From Candidatus Versatilivorator sp. (lineage in GTDB: Bacteria > Acidobacteriota > Terriglobia > Versatilivoradales > Versatilivoraceae): a DNA stretch of 64,000 nt. Location of the stretch: positions 2,848,001-2,912,000 of the forward strand of contig OZ242296.1 in NCBI GenBank assembly GCA_965207735.1, given 5' to 3'. The notes under the pieces are model-generated. The model was not told the origin of the DNA. It searched no databases and saw only the letters and a list, made by a program, of their open reading frames with translations. The stretch's first letter is position 1, and the number at the start of each line of letters is the position of its first letter. Shown one piece after another: positions 20,807 to 35,895 of this stretch. Both the position numbers and the translations under genes were made by a program.

Positions 20807-21050
20807 CGCCGCCTACGCGGCTGCGTTGGCGCGGATTCGGACGACCCCGGGCTGCCGCCCGGGGCTACACGAGGCCGCAGCTTCGCAGCTCTCTCTTAAC
20901 CCACGACACCGCTGGCGGGTAGGATTTTTAAATAGATTATCCCCGGGCGGAAGCCCGGGGTTCCAGGAAGCCGCGAAGCGGCGCCAGCGCTTAGCCATGG
21001 GCGTCAGCCCATGGAAAGCTGCGCATTTGTGTTGAGCCGCGAAGGCGGCG
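20807..21050. repeat. REP/BIME-like cluster; last unit interrupted by island
   Basis: CGCCGCCTACGCGGCT, CCCCGGGCTGCCGCCCGGGG, AGCCGCGAAGCGGCG, CCATGGGCGTCAGCCCATGG, AGCCGCGAAGGCGGCG. Confidence 0.75.
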
Positions 21051-21320: not shown

Positions 21321-21478
21321 CTACTGTTTTTCGAGGGCCTCGTCGATGAGGGCGCGCAGCCGGGATCCGACGTTGAGGTGCCGCTGGCTGCCGAGGCGCT
21401 GGAGGCCTTGACGGGTTTCGGGAGAGACATGGATATGAAGCGGTACACGGTGCAATATAGAGACACACAACAACACAT
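21321..21478 (-). CDS. Small ribbon-helix-helix (CopG-like) protein, possibly degenerate, start uncertain
   Basis: RVPLHIHVSPETRQGLQRLGSQRHLNVGSRLRALIDEALEKQ has an RHH-like pattern; short ACACAAC/GCTACA repeats upstream. Confidence 0.4.
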
Positions 21479-21551
21479 GGAGCGACAAGCAGGTTACAAC
21501 GCTACACAACGCTACATGGAGACACACGCAGCCACCGTGAGCGCGAAAAAG

Positions 21552-21950
21552 TGCTCGATGGCCTTCCCGCCAGGGATCACTGTGGAGGGAGCGACCCCGG
21601 AAAGGGGAGGGGAGGTGGTGGATTTTGGCGTGCACCACCTAACCCTGCCCGGTGCCGCACCAGCGGCAAAAATGAGGGGGTCGCTCCCTCCACTTCCTCC
21701 CCCTCCTGTGCGGCGCCACGACGCGCAGTGCGAGGCGGGGACGCCCGGCGCCGGCGCCGCACTACGCTTTACTGCAGAGGACTCGGGGAATCCTTGCTAA
21801 CCCGCTTCCAATGCGGGTTTCCGGGCACAACCTGGACCACGACGGCGAGGACTTCGCCCTCTGAGAGAGGAGCGTTGGAGTGGTCAATAGCGTGAGCCAC
21901 CTGGTGCGCCACCTGTGTGAGCCACCCCCCGTCTGAAAGGTGGCCACCCA
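21552..21950. repeat. Conserved structured non-coding module, copy A
   Basis: 17-bp IR GTGGAGGGAGCGACCCC/GGGGTCGCTCCCTCCAC (21582-21693), internal hairpins, GTGMGCCAC triplet (21892-21925). Confidence 0.8.
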
Positions 21951-22236
21951 TACGACGCCACGTCCTTGACCCCCGGAGGCGGAAATCGTCGATCGATCCC
22001 GCTCCGTCCGAGGCCGGGGTTTCCTCTTCCGCCTGGTCGATCCTGTCCACGACGGCGTCGAGGCCTCCATGGCTTTCGACGGTGTCCCAATCGGCATCAC
22101 CGATGGTCTGCCGGCGGGCCCCCACTTCTGTCGTGGCCGCCCCCGGATCTCGGCTTGCCCGGGCCTGCAGAACCCGCTGGGTGGGGTCGAGATGGTGTTT
22201 GTCCCACTTCGACGACAACCCATTCGACCCTCTCAA
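21890..22236 (-). pseudogene. 3' remnant of a paralog of the 33315-34310 gene
   Basis: TVESHGGLDAVV...IDDFRLRGSRTWRRMGGHLSDGGWLTQVAH aligns with TVERYGGLNAAL...IDEFHLWGSRRCRRMGGHLKKGGWLTEVAH. Confidence 0.75.
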
Positions 22237-22295
22237 GACTCGGGCTCCTCGGGTCTTCAGGTAACGAGCCGCACATACTGAGCCCCCGCCATGTG

Positions 22296-22808
22296 TCAGG
22301 TCTTCCTAAAGAAGCACACTTCCGTATCGTTCCCATCCCGGCAATCGGTCTTCCGATTGAGCTTTACTGTCAGGTCTCGGCGGAGGTTTACCGCTTCCTG
22401 TTTTTTTCGCTCTTTCTCGGCGCCTGTGGAAAACCGGTCCCCAAACCGCTTCCCGCGCGCGTATATAGGGGGAGACAAGGGGACCGGTTGGTTTTCCACA
22501 GGACAAGTCTTTTCTTTTCTATCAACTGAACCAATTTCCGGGGCTTTTGATTCTTGGGAACCGGTTGAGAGACGGGAACCGGTTTTGAGGGGCTTTTCTC
22601 CGCTTTGCATTCGCTCCTGATCTCCGTCTTCGGCAAGGCTCCACAGCACCTTCTGTTTGCCCTTCCTGCGCCGGATCAGCCGCCCTTCCTCCAGCATCTC
22701 GTTCAAGACGCCGGCGATGGTGTCGTTTCGGGCCTCGATGTTTCTCGTAGTTCCCGGGTCGTGATTTTTGGAGGTGACCCCCTCTACCGGCCCGGCTTCG
22801 GGGTCCAT
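22296..22808 (-). pseudogene. Possible C-terminal remnant of a satellite/plasmid replication protein with origin-like repeats
   Basis: wHTH-like IAGVLNEMLEEGRLIRRRKGKQKVLWSL followed by repeated GG(G)AACCGGTT/GGACCGGTT motifs and TATATAGGG. Confidence 0.35.
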
Positions 22809-23375
22809 TTCAGGGTGACATTCCTGTACGTAGCGATTTGGGATACTTTGCGGGAGGAGGAGGGGCGGTCCTCCAAGGTAGGACGATCAGACGGTGATTA
22901 TCGAGTGAGGCGGATCGTTTAGTCACTCTTCCTTAATGTTTCTGTCACAGAAGCCGCAGCCACAGCCATGGGTTTTACTTCTGATAAGACGCCGTAGACC
23001 TCTGAAATCCAGGTACTACAGGTCGTCGGACCCCGAGAAACGTCAGTACAGGGCATCCTATGGCCTCGTTTTTGTCCCGATCGCACTGAAATTCTCGATC
23101 TCCCACAGGAGGGGAGCCCTCCTGTCGCTGAGAGATCCAGAATCGCCCAGGAAGGCCTTTGGGGGGTATTGGGGTACGCCATGGACCGAGAAAACGCAGC
23201 CTGACCGGCAAAGCTCAAGGATTTACCGGGAATCTGGTGACGGGCTGGAGTTCAAAAGCGGTCCCTGGAACACCACAAGACGCACCCCGCCCAGGTCGCC
23301 ACCGGCCTACATCTTGTGCTTTTTGGGAGGTCCGGAGAGTGGTGTCCGGTAAGTCCTTTGGAATGAGTGGGGGTT

Positions 23376-23404
23376 ACGTCCGATAATAGGGGGATATGTC
23401 AACT
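23376..23404 (+). other. Degenerate dif-like (XerCD) site
   Basis: ACGTCCGATAA-TAGGGGG-ATATGTCAACT resembles XerC arm, spacer, XerD arm; spacer is 7 nt rather than 6. Confidence 0.45.
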
Positions 23405-23927
23405 TCTACACGCCGGCGACGAGGACGTGCAGGACCTGGCCGGCTAGGCCAACTTCTCATGCAGTTTCTCAAATCACTGTCCAAAGAAATCGTGGGGCGG
23501 GGGACTAATTTCAAGTGGGCTCTGTGTAAGGAGTCCAGCTCAAAAAGAAGCCTTGCCCTTTCGCCCCGACACCTCTGGTCGTCAGGGACGGATTGAAATA
23601 TCTGTTGGTGGTACGTCAGGTTGATCGGTTGTAGTAACCGGTGGTGTGTCCGGGGCAGCAGACGCTCGCCCTTGCTGAGCTGGCATCTCGGGAGCAGACG
23701 GAGCAAGTAGGACCAGGCGGACAGCCAGCCTCATTATGTGTCGCCTTTATCCCTTGGTGAAAACTGCTGCTATACTGATTTTCAACGATAGATTCTTACA
23801 GTCAGGAACACACGTTAACGCTCTGCAAGGTATTGTGGCTGGATCGCTGTGCACGCGCAGGAAAACCTGCGGTTCATTGGACACGATGGTTCAGTGACGA
23901 TCAGAGGCGGGCCGGAGAGTAAGGAAC

Positions 23928-26147
23928 ATGAGACTCATGATGCTTCTAATGGCTTGCCTGGTCTTGGCATCCGCTCAGGCATTTGGAACGGACTGCAAGG
24001 ACTGGAACACACAAGGGTTCTTTGAGAAAGCCACAACCGAGGTCGTGACCGGCTGCCTCGAATCTGGAGCTGGCGTCACGGTGCGGAACGATGACGGTAA
24101 CACTCCTCTGCATTTTGCCGCGGGGTGGGCCGAGTACCCTGCCATCGTCACCGCTCTGTTGGGAGTTGGCGCCGACCTCAAAGCCCGGAATGATTGGGAC
24201 GCAACCCCTTTTCATCTGGCGGGCGGCAATGAGAGTCCTGCCATCGCCACCGCCCTGTTGGAGGCAGGAGCGGACCCCAAAGCGAGGACATTGCGCGGGT
24301 GGACACCACTGCATTACGCAGCTCGGCGTGGGATGAATCCTGCTGTCGTTGAGGCTCTGGTTGAAGCAGGTGTCGATCCCGCTGCAGGGGACAATGAAGA
24401 CCGCAACGCCCTGCATTGCATTTTCCCTACCCATCCCCTCGACACTAATATCGACAAGATTGCGGCTTTCGTAGCGGCTTTGGTAAATGCCGGAGTGGAT
24501 CCCAAAGCAAGGGATCGGCAGGGCACTACTGCTCTTCACCTGGCGGCCAGATACATGAGCGATCCTGCCGTCATCGAGGTGATGGTCAACGCCGGAATGG
24601 ACATCGAGGCGCGCAATCGAGGGGGCCGCACCGTTCTGTATTCGGCCGCTCAGTCTCGAGAAAGTCTTGCCATGGTCACAGCTCTACTGGAAGCCGGAGC
24701 AGATCCCAAGGTGCGGGATAACTGGGAGCGAACCCCCTTGCATGACGCCGTCAAACGCGCGGAAAATCCCGCTGTCGTTGACAAGCTGGTCAAGGCGGGA
24801 GTGGACCCCAATGCGCGGGACCGGAGCGGCCACACGGCTCTGCATGAGGCCGCTACTCTCAATCGCAACCCGGCCGTCATCTCCGCGTTGCTGAAAGCCG
24901 GGGTGGATCCCAAGGTGCGGGGCAAGGCTGAGTGCACCCCTCTGCATCACGCTGCCAGGGCCATAAGGAATCCTGCGGTCATCGCGCTACTGATAGAGGC
25001 AGGCGTGAATCCTATGGCACGGGATCGGGAGGGCCGCACCGCTCTGCATTGGGCGGCGCGGGATTCCTTCGATGACCACAACCCTGACTTTCTCCTTGCC
25101 CTTTTGGAAGCTGGGGTAGACCCGAAAGCGCGGGACCGGAACGGTCGAACCGCCCTCCATCTGGCAGCGGAGAACACTCGCAATCCTGCCAACATCCCTG
25201 ATCTCGTGAAGTTGGGGTTGGACGTGGAGGCACGCGACTCCAGGGGATTCACCCCCCTGTTCTGGGCCGCCCAAAAAAGCAGCAATCCTGCCGTCACCGC
25301 GACGCTGGTAAGGCTCGGGGCAGACCCCAGGGCGCGCTATGGGATTGGTTACACCCCCCTGCATGAGGCAGCCCGGGGAAATGAAAATTCATCGATTCTC
25401 ACCGCGCTGATCGAGGCGGGCGCCGACCCGAACAGTCAAACTGAGTACGGCGACACCCCCCTGCACAGTGCGGCCGGCCAAAACAGCAATCCGCACGTCA
25501 TCACCACCCTGCTCGAAGCGGGTGCGGATCCCAAGGCTCGGACACGACGAGGCACCACTCCACTGCATCGGGCAGCTGGCCATAACAGCAATCCACACAT
25601 CGTCACCACGTTGTTGGAAGCGGGAGCGGACCACAACGCACGGGATGATAGGAGGTACACTCCCTTGCACGAGGCGGCTCACAACGTCAATTCAGCCATC
25701 ACGACAATACTTCTGGAATCCGGAGCGGACCCCATGGCGCGGGAGCAACAAGGAGACACGCCGCTTTATTTTGCGGCCGGGAACGCTAATCCGGCCGTTT
25801 TGGCTGCGTTGATCAAGGCAGGTGCCGACCCCAACAGTCAAACAGAATCCGACGGTGAAACCCTTCTGCATCATGCGGCCGATAGCAACACCAACCCGGC
25901 CATTATCTCCGCACTGATCGAGGCGGGTGCTGATCCTAACGCTCAGACTGAACACATGAAACGCACACCCCTGCATGAGGCCGCCGAGTACAATAAAAAC
26001 CCGGCTGTCATCGACACGCTGCTGGACGCTGGAGCAGACCCCAATGTATGGGATAGCGAGTCCAAAATCCCTTGGGACTATGCCAGAGGCAGAGACGAGT
26101 TGAAGGGCTCCGCGGCCTATAGGCGTTTGCAAGAGGCGATTGAATAG
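23928..26147 (+). CDS. Secreted ankyrin-repeat protein (~19-20 repeats)
   Basis: Signal peptide, repeated G.TPLH.AA..N.NPAV...LL.AGADP.AR; RBS AAGGA. Confidence 0.95.
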   Translation: MRLMMLLMACLVLASAQAFGTDCKDWNTQGFFEKATTEVVTGCLESGAGVTVRNDDGNTPLHFAAGWAEYPAIVTALLGVGADLKARNDWDATPFHLAGGNESPAIATALLEAGADPKARTLRGWTPLHYAARRGMNPAVVEALVEAGVDPAAGDNEDRNALHCIFPTHPLDTNIDKIAAFVAALVNAGVDPKARDRQGTTALHLAARYMSDPAVIEVMVNAGMDIEARNRGGRTVLYSAAQSRESLAMVTALLEAGADPKVRDNWERTPLHDAVKRAENPAVVDKLVKAGVDPNARDRSGHTALHEAATLNRNPAVISALLKAGVDPKVRGKAECTPLHHAARAIRNPAVIALLIEAGVNPMARDREGRTALHWAARDSFDDHNPDFLLALLEAGVDPKARDRNGRTALHLAAENTRNPANIPDLVKLGLDVEARDSRGFTPLFWAAQKSSNPAVTATLVRLGADPRARYGIGYTPLHEAARGNENSSILTALIEAGADPNSQTEYGDTPLHSAAGQNSNPHVITTLLEAGADPKARTRRGTTPLHRAAGHNSNPHIVTTLLEAGADHNARDDRRYTPLHEAAHNVNSAITTILLESGADPMAREQQGDTPLYFAAGNANPAVLAALIKAGADPNSQTESDGETLLHHAADSNTNPAIISALIEAGADPNAQTEHMKRTPLHEAAEYNKNPAVIDTLLDAGADPNVWDSESKIPWDYARGRDELKGSAAYRRLQEAIE

Positions 26148-26454
26148 CAGCGGTAGACTCTGGCCTCTGGCCAGCGTTTCCGCAATGAGGACGATTAGTG
26201 GAAGACAATGCAGTGTTTTGGTCGCAACGAATTGCTGGGCTGGCGACGGCTGCCGAACGAGCGCACTAGCGCATTTTCGAGTGGCCTCCCCCATAGGACG
26301 GTCCACTTCGAGAGCGATGACTGGTCCGGTCTCCTCAGCCGCCCAGTCCCGGAAGCTGGTCCGTCTTCAGCCATTCGGGAATACTGGTCACGGTCCTGTT
26401 CCCCGCAGACGCCGAGATGAATCGGAGTAAGAAACAGGCTCATCCAATGACCCT

Positions 26455-26885
26455 GGAATGATCGACGATTTCCGCCTCTGGGGGTCAAGCAGGTGCCGTC
26501 AGATGGGCCGCCACGTTTCAGACGGGGGGGTGGCGATCTAAGATGGCGACGATCTTGATACGCACAACGCTTCTCTCTCAGAGGGCGGAGCCCTCGCCGT
26601 TGTGGTCGGGGACTTCCCCGAAACGCTGCATCAGACGCGGGACAACACGGATTTCCCGCGTCCGTTGCGGAAAAGCGAAGCGAGGCTGCGCCTCGCGCGT
26701 CCCCCCTCGTCCGGCGGGGCGGCGCCCGCACGAGAGGGGTGCTGGTGGAGGGAGCGACCCCACCCTTTTGGCCGCTGGTGCGGCGCAGGGAAGGGCAAAG
26801 GTGGCGGCCCCTGTGGCCGCCCGTTGCCCCCCTTGCGGGGAGGTCGCTCCCTCCACAGAGATCCCTTGCGGGAAGGCCATCCAAA
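26455..26885. repeat. Conserved structured non-coding module, copy B (inverted), with last codons of the associated gene
   Basis: GMIDDFRLWGSSRCRQMG tail on + strand, then IR 26745-26856. Confidence 0.8.
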
Positions 26886-26905
26886 GCTGCCGAGGTCAGG
26901 GCCGA

Positions 26906-27150
26906 TCAACTGATCGGTTCTGCCCCTCGACATCCGCCGGCCAGGTAGCCGGCCCAGTCATCCATGAGCCGGCGTCGACGCTCGAACAGGTCCGAGCGCC
27001 GGTAGGCGGCCTCGATCTGGCTGCGGACCTTGTGCGCCAGGGCAGGCTCCAGGACCTCCAGGGCGCGACGGCACAGAGGGACCCGGTGCTCGCGATTCCC
27101 CTTCGTGCGAGGGGCCGGGATGCTCCACACGCCCTCGTCGCTGTCGCTTC
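26906..27150 (-). pseudogene. Internally deleted tyrosine integrase 3' fragment
   Basis: GVWSIPAPRTKGNREHRVPL...ALAHKVRSQIEAAYRRSDLFERRRRLMDDWA. Confidence 0.8.
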
Positions 27151-27299
27151 TCGCGCCATCGAGCCCTCGGTCATGGGAGAGGGAGAAGGGAGCGGCGGGG
27201 GGTGATGGAGGGGCCGGGGGAGAGCTCTCCCCGGTCGGGGGTTCGAAGGGGCCGGAGCCCCTCGCCAGCCCCAATGTATTACATTGGGTAGGCTGGCTC

Positions 27300-27410
27300 C
27301 CCGGCACTACGCGGTGCGCCGCCGGCCTCGCTGTCCCCCCGCCTCGCACGGTGCGCTGGCGCGCCGCACGGGAGGGGGAGGAAGTGGAGGGAAGGCCATC
27401 GAGCGCTGCC
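27300..27410. repeat. Partial non-coding module, copy D (large hairpin deleted)
   Basis: CCCCGCCTCGCACGG...GGAGGGGGAGGAAGTGGAGGGAAGGCCATCGAG matches the flanks of copy A. Confidence 0.65.
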
Positions 27411-27414
27411 GAGG

Positions 27415-28010
27415 TCAGGGCGGATCAACCGATCGGTCCGGCGCTCGACACCCGCCGGCCAGGTAGCCGGCCCAGTCGTCCATCAGGACACGCCGGCGTT
27501 CGAACAGGTCGGAGCGGGCATAGGCCGCCTCGACCCGGTTGCGGACCACATGCGCCAGGGCCGCCTCGATCACCTCCCGGGGATGATCAGTCTCTTCGGC
27601 CGCCCAGTCCCGGAAGCTGGATCTGAACCCGTGCGGCACCGCCGCAATCCCCTGCTCGCGGACCAGCCACCGCAGCTCCTTGTCATTGAGCGGCTTCCCT
27701 TGCCCACGGGTGAACACCAGCGGACCGCCTCCCTCATCCAGTGCCTGCACTGCCTCGAGAATCTCCAGGGCACGTCCACACAGCGGCACCTCGTGCTTCC
27801 GGTTGGCCTTCATCCGCCTGGCCGGGACGGTCCATACGCCAGCGTCCCGATTGATCTCCTCCCACTCGGCCCAGCGCACCTCACTCCACCTGGCCGCCGT
27901 CAGCACCAGAAACTCGAAGGCCAGCTTGGCCATCTCGGGCGCCGTCGCTGCCCGCACCATCCGGATGGCCACAGCCACCTCCCGATGGGGCAAGGCCTGC
28001 ATGTGCTCGT
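27415..28010 (-). pseudogene. Tyrosine integrase, catalytic half only
   Basis: EHMQALPHREV...LTAARWSE...HGFRSSFRDW...LAH...AAY, very similar to the C-terminal half of 34431-35663. Confidence 0.85.
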
Positions 28011-28223
28011 TCAGGCGGTAGGCATTGACGCTCCCAGGGACAATTCTCTCACCGGTAAGTTCCAACACTACTCCAAACTGTGGGTACAGACACGAAAACG
28101 ACATCAAGGTGGCCTTCAAGTCTCGAATTGGCCAAGGGATTCGGCCAACCCACATCGCCCTCAGAACCTGAGCAGATCAAATAGCTTGTAACCCTGACAA
28201 GGTTCTTTTCCCCATCGTCCGGG

Positions 28224-31200
28224 TCACAGCTCTTCAATCCTGATCCATTGAACAGCACACCCCAGATTACGGTAATCCGAAGACGCTCCAGCCTGGCTGG
28301 GGTTCCACATGGGGCGCACCGCAAAGCGAATGGTCGTGGGGCCTTTGTCAATGGCTCCCGGTGCAATGGGGAATGCGTACTCCTGGAACTGCTCCCCTAC
28401 CCCGATCAGCTCTTTTGTGTCCAGTCTCATCTCATTGACCCAAACGGTGAGAAATTGTCGGAACTTGGGATCCGGATTCGACTTGACGGTTCGGATCACG
28501 AGTTGATAGTCCTCGCCAGGATTCAAGGGAACAGGCCATACCAGGCTTGGAGCAAGCCCGGACCAGGAATACCCGTCAGCTTCCACCGGATAGAAATCAT
28601 TCCGTTCTACTCCCTCGCACTCGGCAATGAATCCCACCTGATAGGCACGGGTCCCACCCATCGGAACCAATGACTGGAGCTTGAGGCAATCCAGCATAAA
28701 CCCCAGATCACGTGTATCCTGACCATACCCCATGGCCGAAGGGTTAAAGGACTGCGATCGAATCTCGACGAGGTTTCTCTCCCCTCGGGCCAACTGCGAT
28801 CGGTCGATCGGAATTTTGTAGTCGCTAAATCCCGGGGACAACCGTAAGGACCCCAAATCATGACCGTTTAGAAGGATCCGGATGGGAGATTCGGTTGCTG
28901 CCCCAGCGTCCGTCCGAGATAGACGTGCGATCAGAACTGCCGGGTAAGTGGTATCGATTTCTGGCATCTCCACAGAAGCATCCCCCCGGCTCCATCGGAA
29001 CGTATTGCCGCCTGACTCAAGTTCCGCTTGATAAAACCCTTTGGACGCGTAGCCGAAGCTGGAGTGCCGGTTGAGAGCTTGGATTGGCTTGGGGTGTTCT
29101 CGCTTACGAGGCTTTACCTCGTAAAGCTGAAGACTGTAGTGCACTTTTTGCATTTTCTGGGGAAGACGCTCAAAAGTACGTTCAACCAAGTCGCTGGCGA
29201 AATGAAAGCGTTCGCTGGGCTCGAACAGGTACTTGGAACTGTCCAGAGATGTCCACTCGTCACAGGAAATGAGAAAGACTCTCTTTTTTTGGGCTAGAAA
29301 TTCCCCGACCACCTGCTCAAACGAGGCGGGATCCGGCTCGTCGTGCGCAAGAGGAAATACGGACTGCCCGAACAGATTCCTAAGGGGACCGACAAAAAAC
29401 TCCTGAGCTCGGCCGTACTCGAACAGGATCACATCCGCTTCTCTTGTCCGGCTGGCAAGTAACGCCATTTGCGCCCAGGATCCACCAAGCTCTCCTTGGC
29501 GCAAAAAGGGCCAGGCCGCAATCGTCTGAGTGGCAATCATGGCCACCAACAACCCCGATCCGCAAACCCGCGGCAAATATCGACGAAAGGTGGATTGAGC
29601 CGCTACCCATGGGTATCTGGAAGCCAACCGACAAAAGCGCTGGATTGCCAGGCCTGCCAGGATAAGCATTGCCGGAATCGCGACTTCGGCATAGCGGCGG
29701 ACGACCCAGTAGTTGTCGGGAAAGGCGCGAGACTTGTAACCGTAGAACAGCAGGAAAGCCGCCAGCAGGAGCAAGAATGGCAAGGGGCGCACCTGTCCTC
29801 TCAATACGACCTGACGCAGTGCCACGATAGCGCCGATAAGGGCCAGACAAAGGCCCAAGGGAGAGAGATACCATCCCAGGCGAACCAGATTCAACTCGTC
29901 GTAGTAGGACACGAATCCCTGGTGGGGGGCGGCCAGCGGCAGCAGGTTGGCGCCCGAGTCCATCATGGGGCGGAAAAAATATCCCCAGGCGAAGGCAATA
30001 ATCAACAAACCCGAGAGGGTCACGAAGACGATCCGGCGCCGGGTCGCGGGATCTCCCCACGACATGGAAGGGGGAAACCGTAGCTCCCACCAGGCTCCCA
30101 TCAGCCGCCTTGAAGACCACGCCGCGGCCGTTGCCAACAAGGCCAGAGCCAACAGCCACCCCCATTGGCGGTCAAGGAAGGAAAGCACACCCTGGTTGAA
30201 CAGGATACCCAACACGTAGGGATAGGCAAAAAGCACAATGTGATCCAAAGAAAAAGCCAAACCGATGGCCAAACCTGCTGCGACTGGTCGGACCGGCAAG
30301 CCGACCCGCCACTTGGGCACCAACCACACCAGAAACAGGAACAACGACACTGCCAGAATCGCCAGCACGGAATCAATGCGCACCATCAGGCTCAATCCGA
30401 CCACCAATCCCGAAAGAAATCCCAGACCGGTTTGCCGGCGGGACAAGGCCAGCGTCAACATCCAAACCCCGGCAAGAATCAGTACCTGGGCCAAGATCTC
30501 GCTGAAGGGGCTTCGGACCAACCAAATCTGACCCAGGTTCAGGCAAAGTAAGGTGGAGGCCATCAACCCGATTGTCCTGGACCGAAAAATCTCAACGGCC
30601 AGTGCAACCAACAGCACGAGGCTCAGCAAACCCAGGATGACATTGAAACCGAACAGTCCGTCGAACCTCCAGAGTTTGAATGCCAGGGACAGCCAGAGCG
30701 GAAACAGGTGTAGATACTGCGGCAACATTTCCCCGGTCTCCGCATCCAGCAGCGAAAAACCCGGCACGGCTTCCAGGTAAAGCGCATTTTCAAGAAGGAC
30801 CGGCAGGAACAGTTTCTGCCGGTCCTCATCAAAATCCTGAAAGTCAGGATCGCTGAAACGCAAGCCCTGCTCTTGAGCCAAGCGCACCGCGATGTTGGCA
30901 TGTTCCCCGGGATCTCTCTGGCTGGTGATATATTCGGCTGTTTTTCCGAAGGTGAATAACCCCAGCAGCAGGATGCCTGCCAGCCACAGATCGCTCCACC
31001 CCAACCGTGGCCGCCACCGGACCGCCAGCCAGAGGTTGACCGGCCGGCGCCATCTCAGAGTCCCTGACTTCAACAGGCCGGCGAAACAGACTACGCTGTA
31101 TACCGCCAACAGAACAAACAGATAGCGCACTCGAAGCCCACCCCGCTGGGCGCTCACAATGAGGAAACAGGAGGTTACAACCAATCCGCAGACAGTGCTG

Positions 31201-31382
31201 AGCAAGGCGGGGCCGATCAGGCTCGTGAACAGGTCGGTCCGGGTGCGGTACGGTGTTCCCGATCCGCCAGGATCCGGAAGCCGCCCAACGGCAAGCCGGT
31301 AGGTCAACCAACCGCTGACGCCAAACAGGCCGGCGAATTGAAACAGAAGCAAGTAGTCCTTCCAGCCTGGAACAAAATCCAT
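28224..31382 (-). CDS. Large polytopic membrane protein, GT-C/ArnT-like glycosyltransferase with C-terminal periplasmic beta domains
   Basis: Many TM helices, RDPG loop, SEIL, RID, RRY motifs; repeated RW/DTRDLG/RNLG domains; downstream of galE. Confidence 0.6.
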   Translation of the reverse strand: MDFVPGWKDYLLLFQFAGLFGVSGWLTYRLAVGRLPDPGGSGTPYRTRTDLFTSLIGPALLSTVCGLVVTSCFLIVSAQRGGLRVRYLFVLLAVYSVVCFAGLLKSGTLRWRRPVNLWLAVRWRPRLGWSDLWLAGILLLGLFTFGKTAEYITSQRDPGEHANIAVRLAQEQGLRFSDPDFQDFDEDRQKLFLPVLLENALYLEAVPGFSLLDAETGEMLPQYLHLFPLWLSLAFKLWRFDGLFGFNVILGLLSLVLLVALAVEIFRSRTIGLMASTLLCLNLGQIWLVRSPFSEILAQVLILAGVWMLTLALSRRQTGLGFLSGLVVGLSLMVRIDSVLAILAVSLFLFLVWLVPKWRVGLPVRPVAAGLAIGLAFSLDHIVLFAYPYVLGILFNQGVLSFLDRQWGWLLALALLATAAAWSSRRLMGAWWELRFPPSMSWGDPATRRRIVFVTLSGLLIIAFAWGYFFRPMMDSGANLLPLAAPHQGFVSYYDELNLVRLGWYLSPLGLCLALIGAIVALRQVVLRGQVRPLPFLLLLAAFLLFYGYKSRAFPDNYWVVRRYAEVAIPAMLILAGLAIQRFCRLASRYPWVAAQSTFRRYLPRVCGSGLLVAMIATQTIAAWPFLRQGELGGSWAQMALLASRTREADVILFEYGRAQEFFVGPLRNLFGQSVFPLAHDEPDPASFEQVVGEFLAQKKRVFLISCDEWTSLDSSKYLFEPSERFHFASDLVERTFERLPQKMQKVHYSLQLYEVKPRKREHPKPIQALNRHSSFGYASKGFYQAELESGGNTFRWSRGDASVEMPEIDTTYPAVLIARLSRTDAGAATESPIRILLNGHDLGSLRLSPGFSDYKIPIDRSQLARGERNLVEIRSQSFNPSAMGYGQDTRDLGFMLDCLKLQSLVPMGGTRAYQVGFIAECEGVERNDFYPVEADGYSWSGLAPSLVWPVPLNPGEDYQLVIRTVKSNPDPKFRQFLTVWVNEMRLDTKELIGVGEQFQEYAFPIAPGAIDKGPTTIRFAVRPMWNPSQAGASSDYRNLGCAVQWIRIEEL

Positions 31383-31424
31383 GGGAATTCCTCATGCCGA
31401 CCGCCCTTGTGTGTCCAGGATCGG

Positions 31425-32414
31425 TCAGCCCAAAAGTTGCTTGCGTTGCCAGTTCAGCGCGGTTGCAACGATGTCGTCCAGGCAGCCATGTTTCGGTGCC
31501 CAGGCCAGAACCTTGAAAGCTTCGGAGGCATCAGCCACCAGGGTCGAAGGATCTCCGGTTCGCCGCGGGCCCTCCTTCACAGGCACCGCCCTGCCCGAAA
31601 GCCGTGCGACCGCCGCAACGATCTGTCTCACCGAGTGTCCCCGTCCCGTCCCCAAGTTCAGCGCAACACTCCGGCCGCCGTCCAGCGAATAGCGTAGGGC
31701 CAACCCGTGGGCCTCAGCCAGATCCGAAACGTGGACATAGTCTCGAACCGCGGTACCGTCAGGTGTTGCATAATCCGTCCCGAAAATCTCAAAACAGCTT
31801 CGCTTCCCGAAGGCCGTTTCTATGGCCAGGGGGATCACGTGAGTTTCGGGTCGATGGCTTTCGCCGATCTCGCCGTCCGGGTCGGCGCCGGCAGCATTGA
31901 AGTATCTCAGACAGACGTAGCCAATGCCATAGGCCATGCTGAAATCCCGCAGCATGTGCTCCACGACCAGCTTGCTTACCCCGTAGGGGGTGATCGGAAC
32001 CTTGGCCTGAGTCTCCGGGATCGGAAGCTTCCCCGGCACTCCATAGATGGCGCAACTGCTGGAAAAGACAATGGACCCTATGCCCCGATCCAGCATTCCC
32101 TTCAGAAGGTTCAGGCTTCCCACCAGATTGTTGTGGTAATACCTGGCCGGATCCACCACCGACTCGCCGACGTCACACAGGTCTGCAAGGTGCATCACCC
32201 CGACCGGCCGATGCTGCTCAATCACTGCTTTCAATCCAGCCTCATCCGTCAAATCAACCCTTTCGAACGGTCCCCACTTTACCGCCGATTGATGTCCACG
32301 GGAGAGACAGTCCACTGCGACCGGATTAAATCCCTCGGTTGCCAGCGACTTGCAGACATGGCTGCCGACATAACCGGCTCCACCGGTGACCAGTATGGTT
32401 TGCCCCAGGACCAC
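31425..32414 (-). CDS. galE: UDP-glucose 4-epimerase
   Basis: TGGAGYVGSH, VGESV.DP..YY.NN, YGVSK, LRYFNAAGADP, DGTAVRDYVHV. Confidence 0.92.
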   Translation of the reverse strand: MVLGQTILVTGGAGYVGSHVCKSLATEGFNPVAVDCLSRGHQSAVKWGPFERVDLTDEAGLKAVIEQHRPVGVMHLADLCDVGESVVDPARYYHNNLVGSLNLLKGMLDRGIGSIVFSSSCAIYGVPGKLPIPETQAKVPITPYGVSKLVVEHMLRDFSMAYGIGYVCLRYFNAAGADPDGEIGESHRPETHVIPLAIETAFGKRSCFEIFGTDYATPDGTAVRDYVHVSDLAEAHGLALRYSLDGGRSVALNLGTGRGHSVRQIVAAVARLSGRAVPVKEGPRRTGDPSTLVADASEAFKVLAWAPKHGCLDDIVATALNWQRKQLLG

Positions 32415-32961
32415 GCTTGCCTTCCCACAGGGGCCAGATCAATGGCCCGCTTCCGGAGCCACTGCTCCTGATGGCCCCAGTTCGACTCATTCAATCAGAA
32501 AACGCCGGTCGCCGCAATTGAGGGGTAAGCGAGACTGCACCTCAGACCGGCAAGGAATGAAAGGGGAAAATGATCTCGGCGAACGGGCAGGAAGAAGCAC
32601 GAAGGAACACGAATAGACTTATTACGGAGTCCAGTGGCCCGCCACCGCGTTGCCTTGCCCCAGAGGACGGTCTACAATGCGCCGATTGTTAGAGGCGGAT
32701 TTCTCACCGAAAAGCTGCGTCAATGTTGAAACGATATTTATCCCTATTTCTGACCAAGAATCTATTGGACCACCCAAGAGGTTTATTGACAGAATGGCGA
32801 GCGATCCACACTGAGTCCGTGAGTCCAGACCATCGAGTAAGGTGGCAATTTGCCCCTGCTGCGGATTGGAGACCGCTGGTTGTGCGGCCGGTCTGTGGTG
32901 TGTTGGCGCGGACCGTGACAGGCTGCAGAGTCCCGCTCGGCTCCGCTGTCCAGCACTTGGC

Positions 32962-33365
32962 TTCTTAGCCGGCTCGACCGCCTTCTCTCAGGGATCAATG
33001 TGGAGGGAGCGCCCCCCCGAGGGGCGGGGTAAGTGGTGGGCCGAAGGGTGGACCACTTACCCCTCCCCGGTGGCGCACCAGCGCCGAAAAAGGGTCGCTC
33101 CCTCCACTTCCGCCTCCTCCTGTGCGGCGCCACGACGCGCCGTGCGAGGCGGGGACCCGCGGCGCCGGCGCCGTACTACGCTTTACCGCAGAGGACTCGG
33201 GGAATCCGTTCCAACCCGCTTCCAATGCGGGTTTCCGGGCACAACCTGGACCACAACGGGGAGGACTGCGCCCTCTGAGAGAGGAGCGTTGGGGTGGTCA
33301 AAAGCGTGCGCCACTTAGTGAGCCACCTCGGTGAGCCACCCCCCCTTTTTAAGGTGGCCACCCAT
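32962..33365. repeat. Conserved structured non-coding module, copy C
   Basis: IR 33000-33107 and GTGMGCCAC triplet 33306-33339 overlapping the stop of the adjacent gene. Confidence 0.8.
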
Positions 33366-34310
33366 ACGACGGCACCGCCTTGACCCCCAGAGGTGGAATT
33401 CGTCGATCATTCCCTGGCCCTGGGGCTCCGGCATTGCCTGCTGCAATTGGTTGATTTTCTTGAGGGCGGCATTGAGGCCGCCATAGCGTTCGACTGTTTC
33501 CCGGTCGGCGCTGGAGACAGCCCACCGTAGAGTGAGAAGCTCTCTGCCGGCCTCAGTCAGGTCCCTGCCTACCCAGGATCGCATCACCCGCTCGGCGCGG
33601 TCCAGCAGTTCCTGCTCCCAGGCAACGGCAACCACTTCGATCCGCCACCCTAACTCGCGCAGCATCTGCCAGAGCGGCCGGTGGGCCTCTCTCCAGGAGT
33701 CCAGCTCAGTACGGGTTTCCATGCCGGGGTCGATGTAGACGAACAGGGCCGCCTCCGGCCCCATGGCAACCGGCATCCTGAGGGGAAAATACTGGACCCG
33801 CCCCTTGGCATGGCCGGCGTAGATCCTGCGGGGCAGCATCCATGGCTCGATCCCGAGCTGTTGGAAGCAAGCGAGCTTCTCCCGCTCGGTCGGCAGCCAG
33901 GCCAACTCCGGATGATCGAGCACGAAATCGAGCAATAGCAGTCGCCGGCGGGTGACTTCAAGCGAGGTCTCCCGGCGGTGACGGATGGGGGGGATCTCCA
34001 GTTCCCCGTAGATCTGCTTGCCGAAGATCCGGCAAATCCGGCGGCCGTCGGTGATGGTCTCCGACGCGATTGGCTTGTGGGAAATGCGTGTCCGGAGCAA
34101 TGCCCGGATAAAGCGGTTGGCGCTGGACTTGGCGTATCCGAAGAAAGCCTCGACCTGGTCCCGGGTGAACAGGCCCGAGTGCAGGCAGACCAGGGTGATC
34201 CATTCGGCCTGTTGGGGGGTGAAGCCAAGAGGCCTCAGCAGTTTTTCCCGTCCCTTCAGGTGAGGAAACTTCGTCGTTTCCTTGGGTCGGCCGACCTGGA
34301 GAAAGGTCAT
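33315..34310 (-). CDS. Uncharacterised wHTH-like protein, candidate replication/relaxation protein of the island
   Basis: GFTPQQAEWITLVCLHSGLFTRDQV..FIRAL; follows integrase; remnants at two other module copies; function inferred. Confidence 0.6.
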   Translation of the reverse strand: MTFLQVGRPKETTKFPHLKGREKLLRPLGFTPQQAEWITLVCLHSGLFTRDQVEAFFGYAKSSANRFIRALLRTRISHKPIASETITDGRRICRIFGKQIYGELEIPPIRHRRETSLEVTRRRLLLLDFVLDHPELAWLPTEREKLACFQQLGIEPWMLPRRIYAGHAKGRVQYFPLRMPVAMGPEAALFVYIDPGMETRTELDSWREAHRPLWQMLRELGWRIEVVAVAWEQELLDRAERVMRSWVGRDLTEAGRELLTLRWAVSSADRETVERYGGLNAALKKINQLQQAMPEPQGQGMIDEFHLWGSRRCRRMGGHLKKGGWLTEVAH

Positions 34311-34430
34311 CAGAATTCCATGGGGTTCCACAGGGAAACAAAACGGTGGTTCGGCGGGGAGCTGCGGTTCACTGCCAACGAGCAGGGAGATGGCAATGGA
34401 TTGTTTCAGGACCGATCCCCCTGGGCCTCT

Positions 34431-35663
34431 TTACTCTCGGGGCTTCCGGTCCTCCCCCATCCCCTGGTCCAGATAACGCGCCCAGTCGTCCATCAGGACA
34501 CGCCGGCGCTCGAACAGGTCGGAGCGGGCATAGGCCGCCTCCACCCGGTTCCGGACCACATGCGCCAGGGCCGCCTCGATCACCTCTCGTGAATGATCGG
34601 TCTCCTCACCTGCCCAGTCCCGGAAGCTGGAGCGGAACCCGTGCGGCACCGCCGCAATCCCAAGATCCCGCACCATCCACCTCAGCTGCTTGTCGTCGAG
34701 CGGCTCCCCTTGCCCACGGGTGAACACCAGAGGTCCGGATCCTTTGCCCAGTGCCTCCACTGCCTTGAGAATCTCCAGGGCACGTCCACACAGCGGCACC
34801 CGGTGCTGGCGGTTGGCCTTCATCCGACTGGCCGGGACGGTCCATACACCAGCGTCCCGATCGATCTCCGCCCATTCGGCCCAGCGCACCTCACTCCACC
34901 TGGCTGCCGTCAGTACCAGGAACTCGAAGGCCAGCTTGGCTACCTCCGACGCTGTCGCTGCCCGCACCGTCCGGATGGCCGCAGCCACCTCCCTATGCGG
35001 CAAGGCCCGCATGTGCTCGGTAACGTCCTGTTGGGGACCCAGGACCGGGCCGATCCTGTCGCAGGGGTTGTCGATTCTGTACTCCATGGCTACGGCCCAT
35101 TCCAGGACCGCCCGCAGGCGCTGGCGCACCCGCCGGGCGCTGGAGGCCTTCCGGTGCCAGATAGGGGTGAGGATCTCAAGCAGATCGGCGCTGGTGACCT
35201 CTGAGACCGGCATCTTGCCGATGCGGGGGAAGGCGTACCGCCTCAGGCTGGACATCCACTCGCGGTGGTGACGCCGGCCTCGCCAGCCGTCCCGCTTCTG
35301 TTCCAGCACACGTGAGGCTGCTTCGACAAAGGTGGGAATACCCTCGGTGCGTCGCTTCTCGGCAAGAGGATCTCCGCCCTCACGGGCCAGCTTGCGGTTA
35401 GCCAGGGCCTTCTCCCTGGCCTCGGCCAGGGAGACCAGGGCGAGGCTGCCGAGACCGAGCTCCCGGCGACGGCCACGGACGACAAGGCGTTGAATCCAAC
35501 TGCGGGTTCCGCTGGGCTGGACGAAGAGGTACAATCCGTTTCCATCGGCGTATCTTCCGGGCGGAGCGGAGCGCAGGAAGGCGGCCGAGAGGGCGTTGCT
35601 GGGGTGGCGGCCGGCGGGTTTGGTCTTGGGTCGGACAGGAGCGAAGTCCGTTACAGTATCCAT
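34431..35663 (-). CDS. P4-like tyrosine integrase with N-terminal arm-binding domain
   Basis: GRYADGNGLYL..SW..RRRELGLG arm domain; catalytic R (TAAR), K, HGFR, LAH, Y. Confidence 0.93.
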   Translation of the reverse strand: MDTVTDFAPVRPKTKPAGRHPSNALSAAFLRSAPPGRYADGNGLYLFVQPSGTRSWIQRLVVRGRRRELGLGSLALVSLAEAREKALANRKLAREGGDPLAEKRRTEGIPTFVEAASRVLEQKRDGWRGRRHHREWMSSLRRYAFPRIGKMPVSEVTSADLLEILTPIWHRKASSARRVRQRLRAVLEWAVAMEYRIDNPCDRIGPVLGPQQDVTEHMRALPHREVAAAIRTVRAATASEVAKLAFEFLVLTAARWSEVRWAEWAEIDRDAGVWTVPASRMKANRQHRVPLCGRALEILKAVEALGKGSGPLVFTRGQGEPLDDKQLRWMVRDLGIAAVPHGFRSSFRDWAGEETDHSREVIEAALAHVVRNRVEAAYARSDLFERRRVLMDDWARYLDQGMGEDRKPRE

Positions 35664-35895
35664 CCCCCCATTATATGGGGGATGGCAGTGGATTGCAAGG
35701 GATGTTGGTAGCAAGTCAAGCCACGGCAGGACTTATATAAAACACTCATAAATAAGACAGTTATAGACTCTACTGGACGGAGCTAGACATCACTGGATTT
35801 TATAGGGACGTTGCGGCGGCGGCAGCAATCATCCGCGGTATTCGATCTCAAACCTGCCGGACCGCTCCCACCCCAGTCCGCACCCTGAAGACTCC

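Follow-up and report, generated by a model that had tools for sequence, protein, structure and literature searches.

What function joins a repeatedly copied, structured DNA module to a neighbouring gene that matches no protein family? The question arises in a 64,000-nt stretch of the Candidatus Versatilivorator sp. genome (Acidobacteriota; contig OZ242296.1, positions 2,848,001 to 2,912,000; hereafter the window). Here, an initial annotation had described four copies of such a module, A to D, and had proposed two alternatives: a cis-acting single-stranded origin, such as an origin of transfer (oriT), or an undescribed non-coding RNA used in trans by the protein of the neighbouring gene. The structural, genomic and comparative data make it probable that the module is a MOBC-type oriT acting with a divergent relaxase. 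The pair would be native to integrative and conjugative elements (ICEs) with a type IV secretion system (T4SS), captured by P4-like integrases and left behind as gene-less origins.

The Y-shaped module and its core

Copies A, C and the inverted copy B align as homologues, the alignment including the stretch assigned to copy D. Each of A, B and C folds as a Y of ~100-110 nt, a three-way junction comprising: an outer stem of 12-17 bp, in which the GG|GTCGC core is invariant; a long arm; and a small arm of 5-6 bp. Measured against shuffled sequences, RNA folding of these copies gives z-scores of -4.5 to -6.7, on both strands, and DNA folding gives -5.6 to -7.7. The description of a structured, repeated module is therefore upheld for A, B and C, while D lacks the Y and the genome holds 47 near-full copies rather than four. 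The geometry needs revision. The outer stem encloses only two inner arms, not three hairpins, and the supposed first hairpin, CCCC-loop-GGGG, borrows bases from the outer stem or the long arm; none of the minimum-energy structures of A, B and C contains it. The arm sequences quoted in the initial annotation were found as given; the left outer arm of copy C reads GCGCCCC, not GCGACCC.

In copy A, RNA and DNA folds and covariation place the Y at 21582..21693 (+). Its outer stem of 17 bp (21582-21598/21677-21693, +) encloses the long arm (21604-21650, +), which bears two motif copies with a 12-nt period, and the small arm (21653-21668, +). The predicted nick, placed by comparison with MOBC nick sites, falls within GGGG|GTCGCT (21676..21685, +), with the cut at 21679|21680. 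The Y of copy B, located by its folds, spans 26745..26856 (-) and has a predicted cut at 26759|26758. The boundary and Y of copy C span 32980..33107 (+), with a predicted cut at 33093|33094; its outer stem (33000-33016/33092-33107, +) contains one mismatch and a shortened G run.

The sequence GGG|GTCGCT is present in 40 of the 47 genome copies. Published accounts give the nick site as GGGTG/GTCGGG for CloDF13 (PMC5935869) and GGTTG|GTCGCG for ICEKp1 (PMC7755788), and place two nic sites within one inverted repeat for pMET1/HPI (PMC2262945). By sequence match, the module contains the MOBC nick core G(G/T)(T/G)G|GTCG within a large inverted repeat, sharing its G-rich|GTCG character with the oriT/MobC systems (Replic_Relax, PF13814) of CloDF13, ICEKp1 and HPI-ECOR31/pMET1. 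In the MOBC oriT and in the module alike, a nic-like word stands in both arms; the opposite arm of the Y (the - strand in copy A) is a candidate for a second nick. The likeness extends to the fold: in the CloDF13 record, an inverted repeat with the same three-way fold (z -5.5) carries the nick site in its 3' arm, and the small hairpin precedes the nick arm. Among other annotated MOBC plasmid stretches, 4 of 6 have, upstream of the gene for the coupling protein, a GCGACC/GGTCGC inverted repeat of comparable length.

Across 70 distinct outer stems, the core scarcely varies and substitutions in the flanking pairs are compensated: position -2 is GC in 43, AT in 13 and TA in 13, and position -4 is CG in 41, AT in 14 and TA in 13. 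Variable cells pair in 537 of 630 cases, compared to 353 +/- 11 in shuffles; these are direct counts over stems pre-selected for some outward pairing, among which kin are not independent. The compensatory swap originally claimed for the small hairpin does not hold strictly, as 12 of the 47 copies carry the mismatched GGCGC/GCGGC, alongside 14 with GCCGC/GCGGC and 5 with GGCGC/GCGCC. Across the 47 copies, linkage reaches its minimum at 21655-21690, in a broad dip that brackets the predicted nick and is accompanied by a second dip at 21900; with the arms aligning poorly, this hints weakly at recombination at the nick.

The same stems bear on the non-coding RNA alternative, which finds no support. 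Their mismatches number 21 G-T versus 22 A-C and, being equal, favour neither strand; both strands also fold alike. A search of Rfam with the module returned no match, only sub-threshold ones with E-values of 1-3.6. In four metatranscriptome contig sets (6-7% shared words), the depth in the Y bin was 5.7, 0, 0 and 0. As these contigs carry no level, strand or ends, and as the Y is thin in DNA contigs too, they provide no evidence on RNA.

Conjugation context and the candidate relaxase

The oriT alternative draws support from several sides: the MOBC-like nick core, the CloDF13-like Y, placement between virB8 and a coupling-protein gene, and the Replic_Relax-like fold of the adjoining open reading frame (ORF). 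The gene family occurs in 45 of the 401 Acidobacteriota genomes searched and comprises 2,202 clusters at 50% identity (E<=0.001). Its closest relatives among named records are in Candidatus Versatilivorator (Acidobacteriota) assemblies. A metagenome scan yielded 3 loci only, and a literature search with limited coverage of subscription journals found no description of this Acidobacteriota family.

The fetched loci contain 117 gene matches, a number that includes duplicates and close kin. The core AGCGACCC...GGGTCGCT inverted repeat lies downstream within 1.2 kb in 93 of these, even beside distant proteins scoring 125-170 bits against the family profile. A coupling-protein gene (TraG-D_C/TrwB_AAD_bind) lies directly downstream in 69, virB8 upstream in 54, and an integrase upstream in 28, giving the order integrase - gene - module. 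The typical order in T4SS clusters is virB8 - gene - module - coupling protein - virB11. In this family as in MOBC systems, the coupling-protein gene adjoins the origin and is transcribed away from it; this MOBC-like neighbour, common among the fetched loci, is absent at the four window copies.

In this genome, the T4SS-cluster order is seen in a compact ICE with genes like those of the mating-pair formation type MPF-T (genome 1839654-1863000; L124, L125). It runs integrase, primase-helicase, virB3, virB4, virB9, virB10, virB8, gene, module, coupling protein, virB11, primase and ArdC, with the ICE-type protein encoded at genome 1,854,194-1,855,141. The primase is of the RepB type, and ArdC is followed by HicB and helicase/defence-like cargo. 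No recognised relaxase was found among the 20 ICE ORFs scanned, and ORFs without a Pfam match include those of 669, 120 and 402 amino acids (aa) and two more downstream. This compact ICE is the likely helper element. A decayed virB8-virB11 piece lies at genome 2778000-2781000.

The protein matches no Pfam, NCBIfam or PHROG family, and its affinities come from predicted structure. In the whole-protein model (predicted local distance difference test, pLDDT, 79), residues ~25-112 form a winged helix. A model of the C-domain (pLDDT 85) matches mostly PD-(D/E)XK nucleases: SdaI (Z 7.1, root-mean-square deviation 4.1 over 120 aligned residues), NucS (6.8), McrC (6.7), N.BspD6I (6.2) and FokI (6.0). 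The predicted models thus combine an N-terminal winged helix with a PD-(D/E)XK fold (Z 6-7), the pairing of winged helix and nuclease fold that MOBC proteins have. The best whole-protein fold match comes from the SPO1 gp27.3-like phage proteins: gp146 of Bacillus phage G, the top entry from the viral models of BFVD (E 5e-5, 250 columns, template-modelling score 0.42/0.50), is a Pfam Replic_Relax member at 89 bits. It differs from the protein here in sequence, with 12% identity and no profile match, and in setting, being a phage protein without an assigned function. ESM Atlas yielded leads below 0.9 only, pointing to Replic_Relax and DUF5697. Searches of Pfam, NCBIfam and PHROG gave no match to HUH transposases (IS91/ISCR, IS200/IS605), nor is there an HUH fold among the matches listed; the fold, as modelled, appears to be of another kind.

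Several observations weigh against a MOBC assignment. PF13814 (Replic_Relax) matches 0 of 36 family members, hhalign comparison with MOBC is not significant, at probabilities of 0.9-2.5% (2.5% against an alignment of 20 MOBC sequences), all PDB Z-scores are below 8, and Foldseek-PDB has no match at E<=0.001. The MOBC catalytic set, PD148, E161xE163, K167 and Y172, is invariant in 20 MOBC proteins and is not conserved in the 36- and 97-sequence family alignments, where the register was set by eye. The family instead conserves FxxKxP, FxYxDPG and LxxW. Unlike MOBC relaxases, then, the protein escapes PF13814 and lacks the PD..ExE..K..Y motif; it is ~315-340 aa long and has a helical insertion. 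Its gene also lies on the opposite side of the origin, as the known MOBC relaxase follows the coupling protein. In 24 of the 117 gene matches there is no core nearby, five of these ending at contig edges. In several others of the 24, such as L053, L054, L074, L076, L091 and L103, the gene directly adjoins that of the coupling protein and the retrieved DNA contains no module; the origin of these loci must be sited elsewhere or be of another form. Lastly, the covariation of recognition helix with repeat motif, described below, is modest. Judged from the models and the surrounding genes, the protein appears to resemble a MOBC relaxase in fold and context, yet it stands outside that family by profile and by catalytic motif.

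The missing canonical catalytic residues would also suit a different assignment of roles, in which the module is an oriT and the protein a catalytically dead specificity factor that binds the repeats and brings in another nicking enzyme, from an ICE ORF or from the host. Those ICE ORFs that have no Pfam match are in keeping with this. A dead factor fits less well with the strong conservation of polar residues in the C-domain (D135 96%, E149 91%, K152 91%, R169 95%, Y171 87% and D201 81% across 97 sequences, numbered from the GTG start), and the minimal 2.85-kb units described below carry only this gene and an integrase. We consider this alternative unlikely, and the reading of the protein as a divergent relaxase is retained.

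The twice-written repeat word

A subfamily-specific motif of 7-11 nt is found at the tip of the long arm and again at the gene end, 100-230 nt away. The word differs by subfamily (GTGMGCCAC, TGAATA, TGTCC, CGCGCC, TGGTACA, TGTGACA, CTGACAC, TAGATCC and others). At the gene end, one or two direct copies are followed by an inverted pair, typically with a 16-nt spacer; at the arm tip, the word occurs one to three times, with a 12-nt period where repeated. The three direct GTGMGCCAC repeats reported earlier are present in both A (starts at 21892, 21904 and 21917) and C (33306, 33318 and 33331), and an additional inverted copy, previously overlooked, lies at 21940 in A and 33354 in C. The predicted protein-binding repeats thus occupy 21892..21947 (+) in A and 33306..33361 (+) in C, where they overlap the gene's final codons and its stop codon. 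Copy B has repeats of the CGCCAC type together with the final ~100 nt of the gene (26455..26555, -), and these match its own arm tip over 10 nt.

Cognate tips and sites share far more than chance would provide. For 49 distinct tips, shared 7-mers average 2.49 in cognate versus 0.52 in non-cognate combinations (permutation p 1e-4), and for 25 own-genome tips 2.36 versus 1.13 (p 5e-4); a control segment shows little or no excess. Matches of at least 9 nt occur in 47% of 103 cognate pairs versus 10% of non-cognate ones. Recognition helices in the family include PNRAHRF, RMTASRF and KSSANRF. Proteins that share the KSS/TANRF helix all have one gene-end word (14 of 14), with the arms varying, indicating that the gene-end site follows the protein and not the arm. 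Across 52 loci, motif similarity tracks helix similarity with a partial r of 0.19 (p 3e-4) once the rest of the protein is allowed for, and the recognition-helix window ranks 11 of 286 in this test. Within one clade the correlation is r 0.28 (p 0.009); within this genus it is not significant (p 0.21, 17 loci). On manual reading, the automatic motif caller was wrong in roughly 12 of 66 loci.

Tip and site match in direct orientation in 48 cases and in complementary orientation in 39, without bias, as expected of duplex binding sites. Same-strand pairing of the arm tip with the inverted repeat was also considered and set aside, there being no bias towards it overall (39 vs 48) or by arm type (29 vs 33). 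In the simplest reading of these comparisons, the winged helix would bind the arm-tip and gene-end words as duplex DNA, to either side of the nick. Arms whose tip disagrees with the gene-end word probably arose by recombination. For the protein encoded at 33315-34331, action in trans is plausible only on copies with that protein's repeat type.

TraX of the Enterococcus plasmid pAD1, also MOBC, offers a comparison. Its published description reports a winged helix that binds repeats 70-120 bp from nic (PMC12857230), and a restriction-nuclease-like domain resembling the fold predicted here. One clade of the present family has a spacing akin to that of pAD1, its repeats being about 100-120 nt away from the predicted nick. 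Unlike pAD1, this genus has direct and inverted repeats with the 16-nt spacer ~225 nt away, extra repeat copies inside the hairpin, and a catalytic motif that is not conserved. The module also differs from MOBC origins in having its subfamily-specific motif duplicated at the arm tip, and in occurring tens of times per genome.

Direct and inverted 7-mers at fixed spacing look like iterons, and the module could be viewed as a replication origin in which iterons accompany a strand-opening or priming hairpin, with the protein as initiator for the excised element. Replic_Relax does span replication as well as relaxation, and the genes of the ICE include those for a RepB-type primase and a primase-helicase. 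The position of gene and module within the run from virB8 through the coupling protein to virB11, the identity of the core with MOBC nick sites, and a tblastn search of 72,556 plasmids that gave no match all argue otherwise. We judge a replication origin improbable, though compatible with use as an oriT.

The tip and its distant site match over up to 14-16 nt, and with the variable motif sitting in the apical loop or tip, the Y might instead be a guide of RNA or single-strand DNA, bridge-RNA-like, whose loop motif pairs with the gene-end repeats. The excess of long matches in cognate pairs would fit a guide. Other findings speak against it: the matches have no orientation bias, the G-T and A-C mismatches are symmetric, no Rfam family is found, and the gene-end motif stays constant in all 14 one-helix proteins while their arms differ. 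A guide is highly improbable.

Putative mobilisable units, proposed mechanism and meaning

A profile search of the genome returned 78 matches, of which the 47 near-full copies all begin sharply at CCTTCCCG..GGGATC, with unrelated flanks. In copy A, this point is a left boundary mini-hairpin (CCTTCCCG..GGGATCA, 21562..21579, +); its counterpart in copy B is at 26859-26876 (-). Fixed-size units terminate at the mini-hairpin with differing flanks, and a second integrase subfamily sits inserted within it, suggesting an element end or a core-type site for the integrase. The module does outlast the gene, as had been proposed. Five copies have the whole gene, one has none, and 41 keep just the last 84-410 nt, so that the repeat-bearing gene tail travels with the module. 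Copy A is of this last kind: at 21904..22218 (-), tblastn identifies what is left of the 3' part of the relaxase-like gene, covering residues about 234-338.

Four of the whole-gene copies are integrase - gene - module units of ~2.85 kb whose ends are short inverted words; the fifth resides in the compact ICE. Copy C belongs to one such unit (32980..35827, -), together with an intact gene whose product has the predicted winged-helix and PD-(D/E)XK-like fold and is the candidate relaxase (33315..34331, -), and an intact P4-like tyrosine integrase (Arm-DNA-bind_3, Phage_int_M, Phage_integrase; 34431..35714, -). With an integrase, a relaxase by inferred identity, an oriT, defined ends and no T4SS, unit C is a putative integrative mobilisable element (IME). 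Contigs from two DNA runs of one sample, possibly the one from which the genome came, are identical to copy C and its left flank. The same unit size was found in 6 units with both ends located by script, of 17 examined. No end-to-end joint of an excision circle is present among 15 joints listed of 26 (four contig sets), and a search of 20 relatives for an empty site of unit C found no usable site. The short inverted ends of the main integrase unit (GCTGCCG) lie in the window at 35810-35827, 26885-26902 and 27405-27421.

About 23 near-full integrase copies are present in the genome, most module copies adjoin integrase genes or remnants, and the integrase unit lies on either side of the module, depending on the copy. 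Copy B adjoins a shorter P4-like integrase remnant, and copy D a 5'-truncated P4-like integrase (27415..28050, -). By alignment, copy D (27300..27404, -) is a boundary fused straight to post-stem sequence, with Y, nick core and repeats all removed by a deletion running between two TCCC words. The second P4-like integrase subfamily (62% identity; genome 636510, 1013993, 2498858 and 1124464) appears to integrate into the module: it begins with the boundary hairpin, and after it comes a module starting at CCGCAGGGA. Insertion into the boundary hairpin recalls IME_oriT of streptococci, which are described (PMC7563843) as small tyrosine-integrase elements with their own relaxase and dependence on an ICE. 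Unlike the present elements, those encode MOBT (Rep_trans) relaxases; the insertion here is ~115 nt from the predicted nick. A group II intron-like end, recognised by eye, occurs at one position inside the boundary hairpin in L031, L036 and L094.

Five further genomes of the genus (G401, G404, G409, G402, G411) differ widely in copy number, between about 0 and about 45; their core inverted-repeat counts are 0-2, 5-6, 20 and 42-45 per strand against 0-2 in the control. Module expansions are therefore lineage-specific. This range of copy numbers, the sharp left boundary with varied flanks and the variable gene truncations would fit a module that is the fixed end of a one-ended, rolling-circle transposon of the IS91 kind driven by the protein, but that is very unlikely: the sharp end, which mirrors the end on the integrase side, is separated from the predicted nick by ~115 nt, most copies have an integrase gene or remnant as neighbour, and the truncations cluster (11 at 99 nt, 13 at 187 nt), as if truncated copies were amplified as units.

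Other features surround the window copies. Beyond the left boundary of A lies a small ORF with a ribbon-helix-helix look by eye and no Pfam match (21324..21500, -), and two inverted, REP-like matches to the Rfam family Acido-Lenti-1 lie at 20845-21014, immediately to the left of element A, with a third such repeat at 1560-1691. Adjoining copy A, a fragment at 22296-22808 (-) resembles the C-terminus of an AAA primase-helicase, with no Pfam match above threshold, and carries repeated GGAAAACC/GGAACCGGTT words. The DNA between A and B encodes a protein of 739 aa (23928-26147, +) that is possible cargo; its N-terminus is signal-like and it contains many ankyrin-like repeats. A solitary repeat at 26397-26425, which we take to resemble a type I-E CRISPR repeat, recurs at 12 further genome places, just past the gene remnant of B-type copies. 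Its 13 copies agree within 6 mismatches, are followed by a constant spacer-like stretch, and are in no case part of an array. No Cas1 was found in this genome, and the sequence could be a mobile solitary repeat unit.

Under the preferred reading, that of a MOBC-type oriT with a divergent relaxase, transfer would proceed as follows. At both the arm tip and the gene end, the winged-helix domain would bind the repeats as double-stranded DNA, bringing the nuclease-fold domain to the core for a nick at GG|GTCGC. Formation of the Y on the displaced or incoming strand would aid termination, and the repeat word, differing by subfamily, would serve one relaxase variant as its address. Within this genus, a P4-like integrase would have captured gene and origin as the 2.85-kb mobilisable unit, for which the resident ICE would supply the T4SS. 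The gene would later have been lost from most copies, which kept the origin and the repeat-bearing gene tail.

A further proposal, which we advance tentatively and as possible rather than probable, is that the protein represents a relaxase class missed by profiles: it would keep the Replic_Relax fold, have lost the PD-(D/E)XK site, and nick the old MOBC site with other residues. It would serve a family of T4SS ICEs in about a tenth of Acidobacteriota, with a fast-changing, twice-written 7-mer address that tracks a hypervariable recognition helix. The origin type itself is already known. What is new is the undetected relaxase family, the missing catalytic motif, the twice-written variable address and the ~50-copy expansion.

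If true, this would give a function to an unannotated family, and a relaxase and oriT to ICEs that lack a recognised one. The chemistry of MOBC is open, with no covalent intermediate seen according to one account (PMC12857230), and a MOBC-type enzyme without the canonical catalytic residues would be a sharp test of it. The family would also be a natural library of orthogonal relaxase-origin pairs, and with dozens of helix/7-mer combinations available, origin specificity could be tested by swaps. For the organism, integrase elements would have amplified the origin to ~50 copies per chromosome, and many chromosomal sites could become starts of transfer. Tens of origins per chromosome could then mobilise host DNA in sponge-type symbionts.

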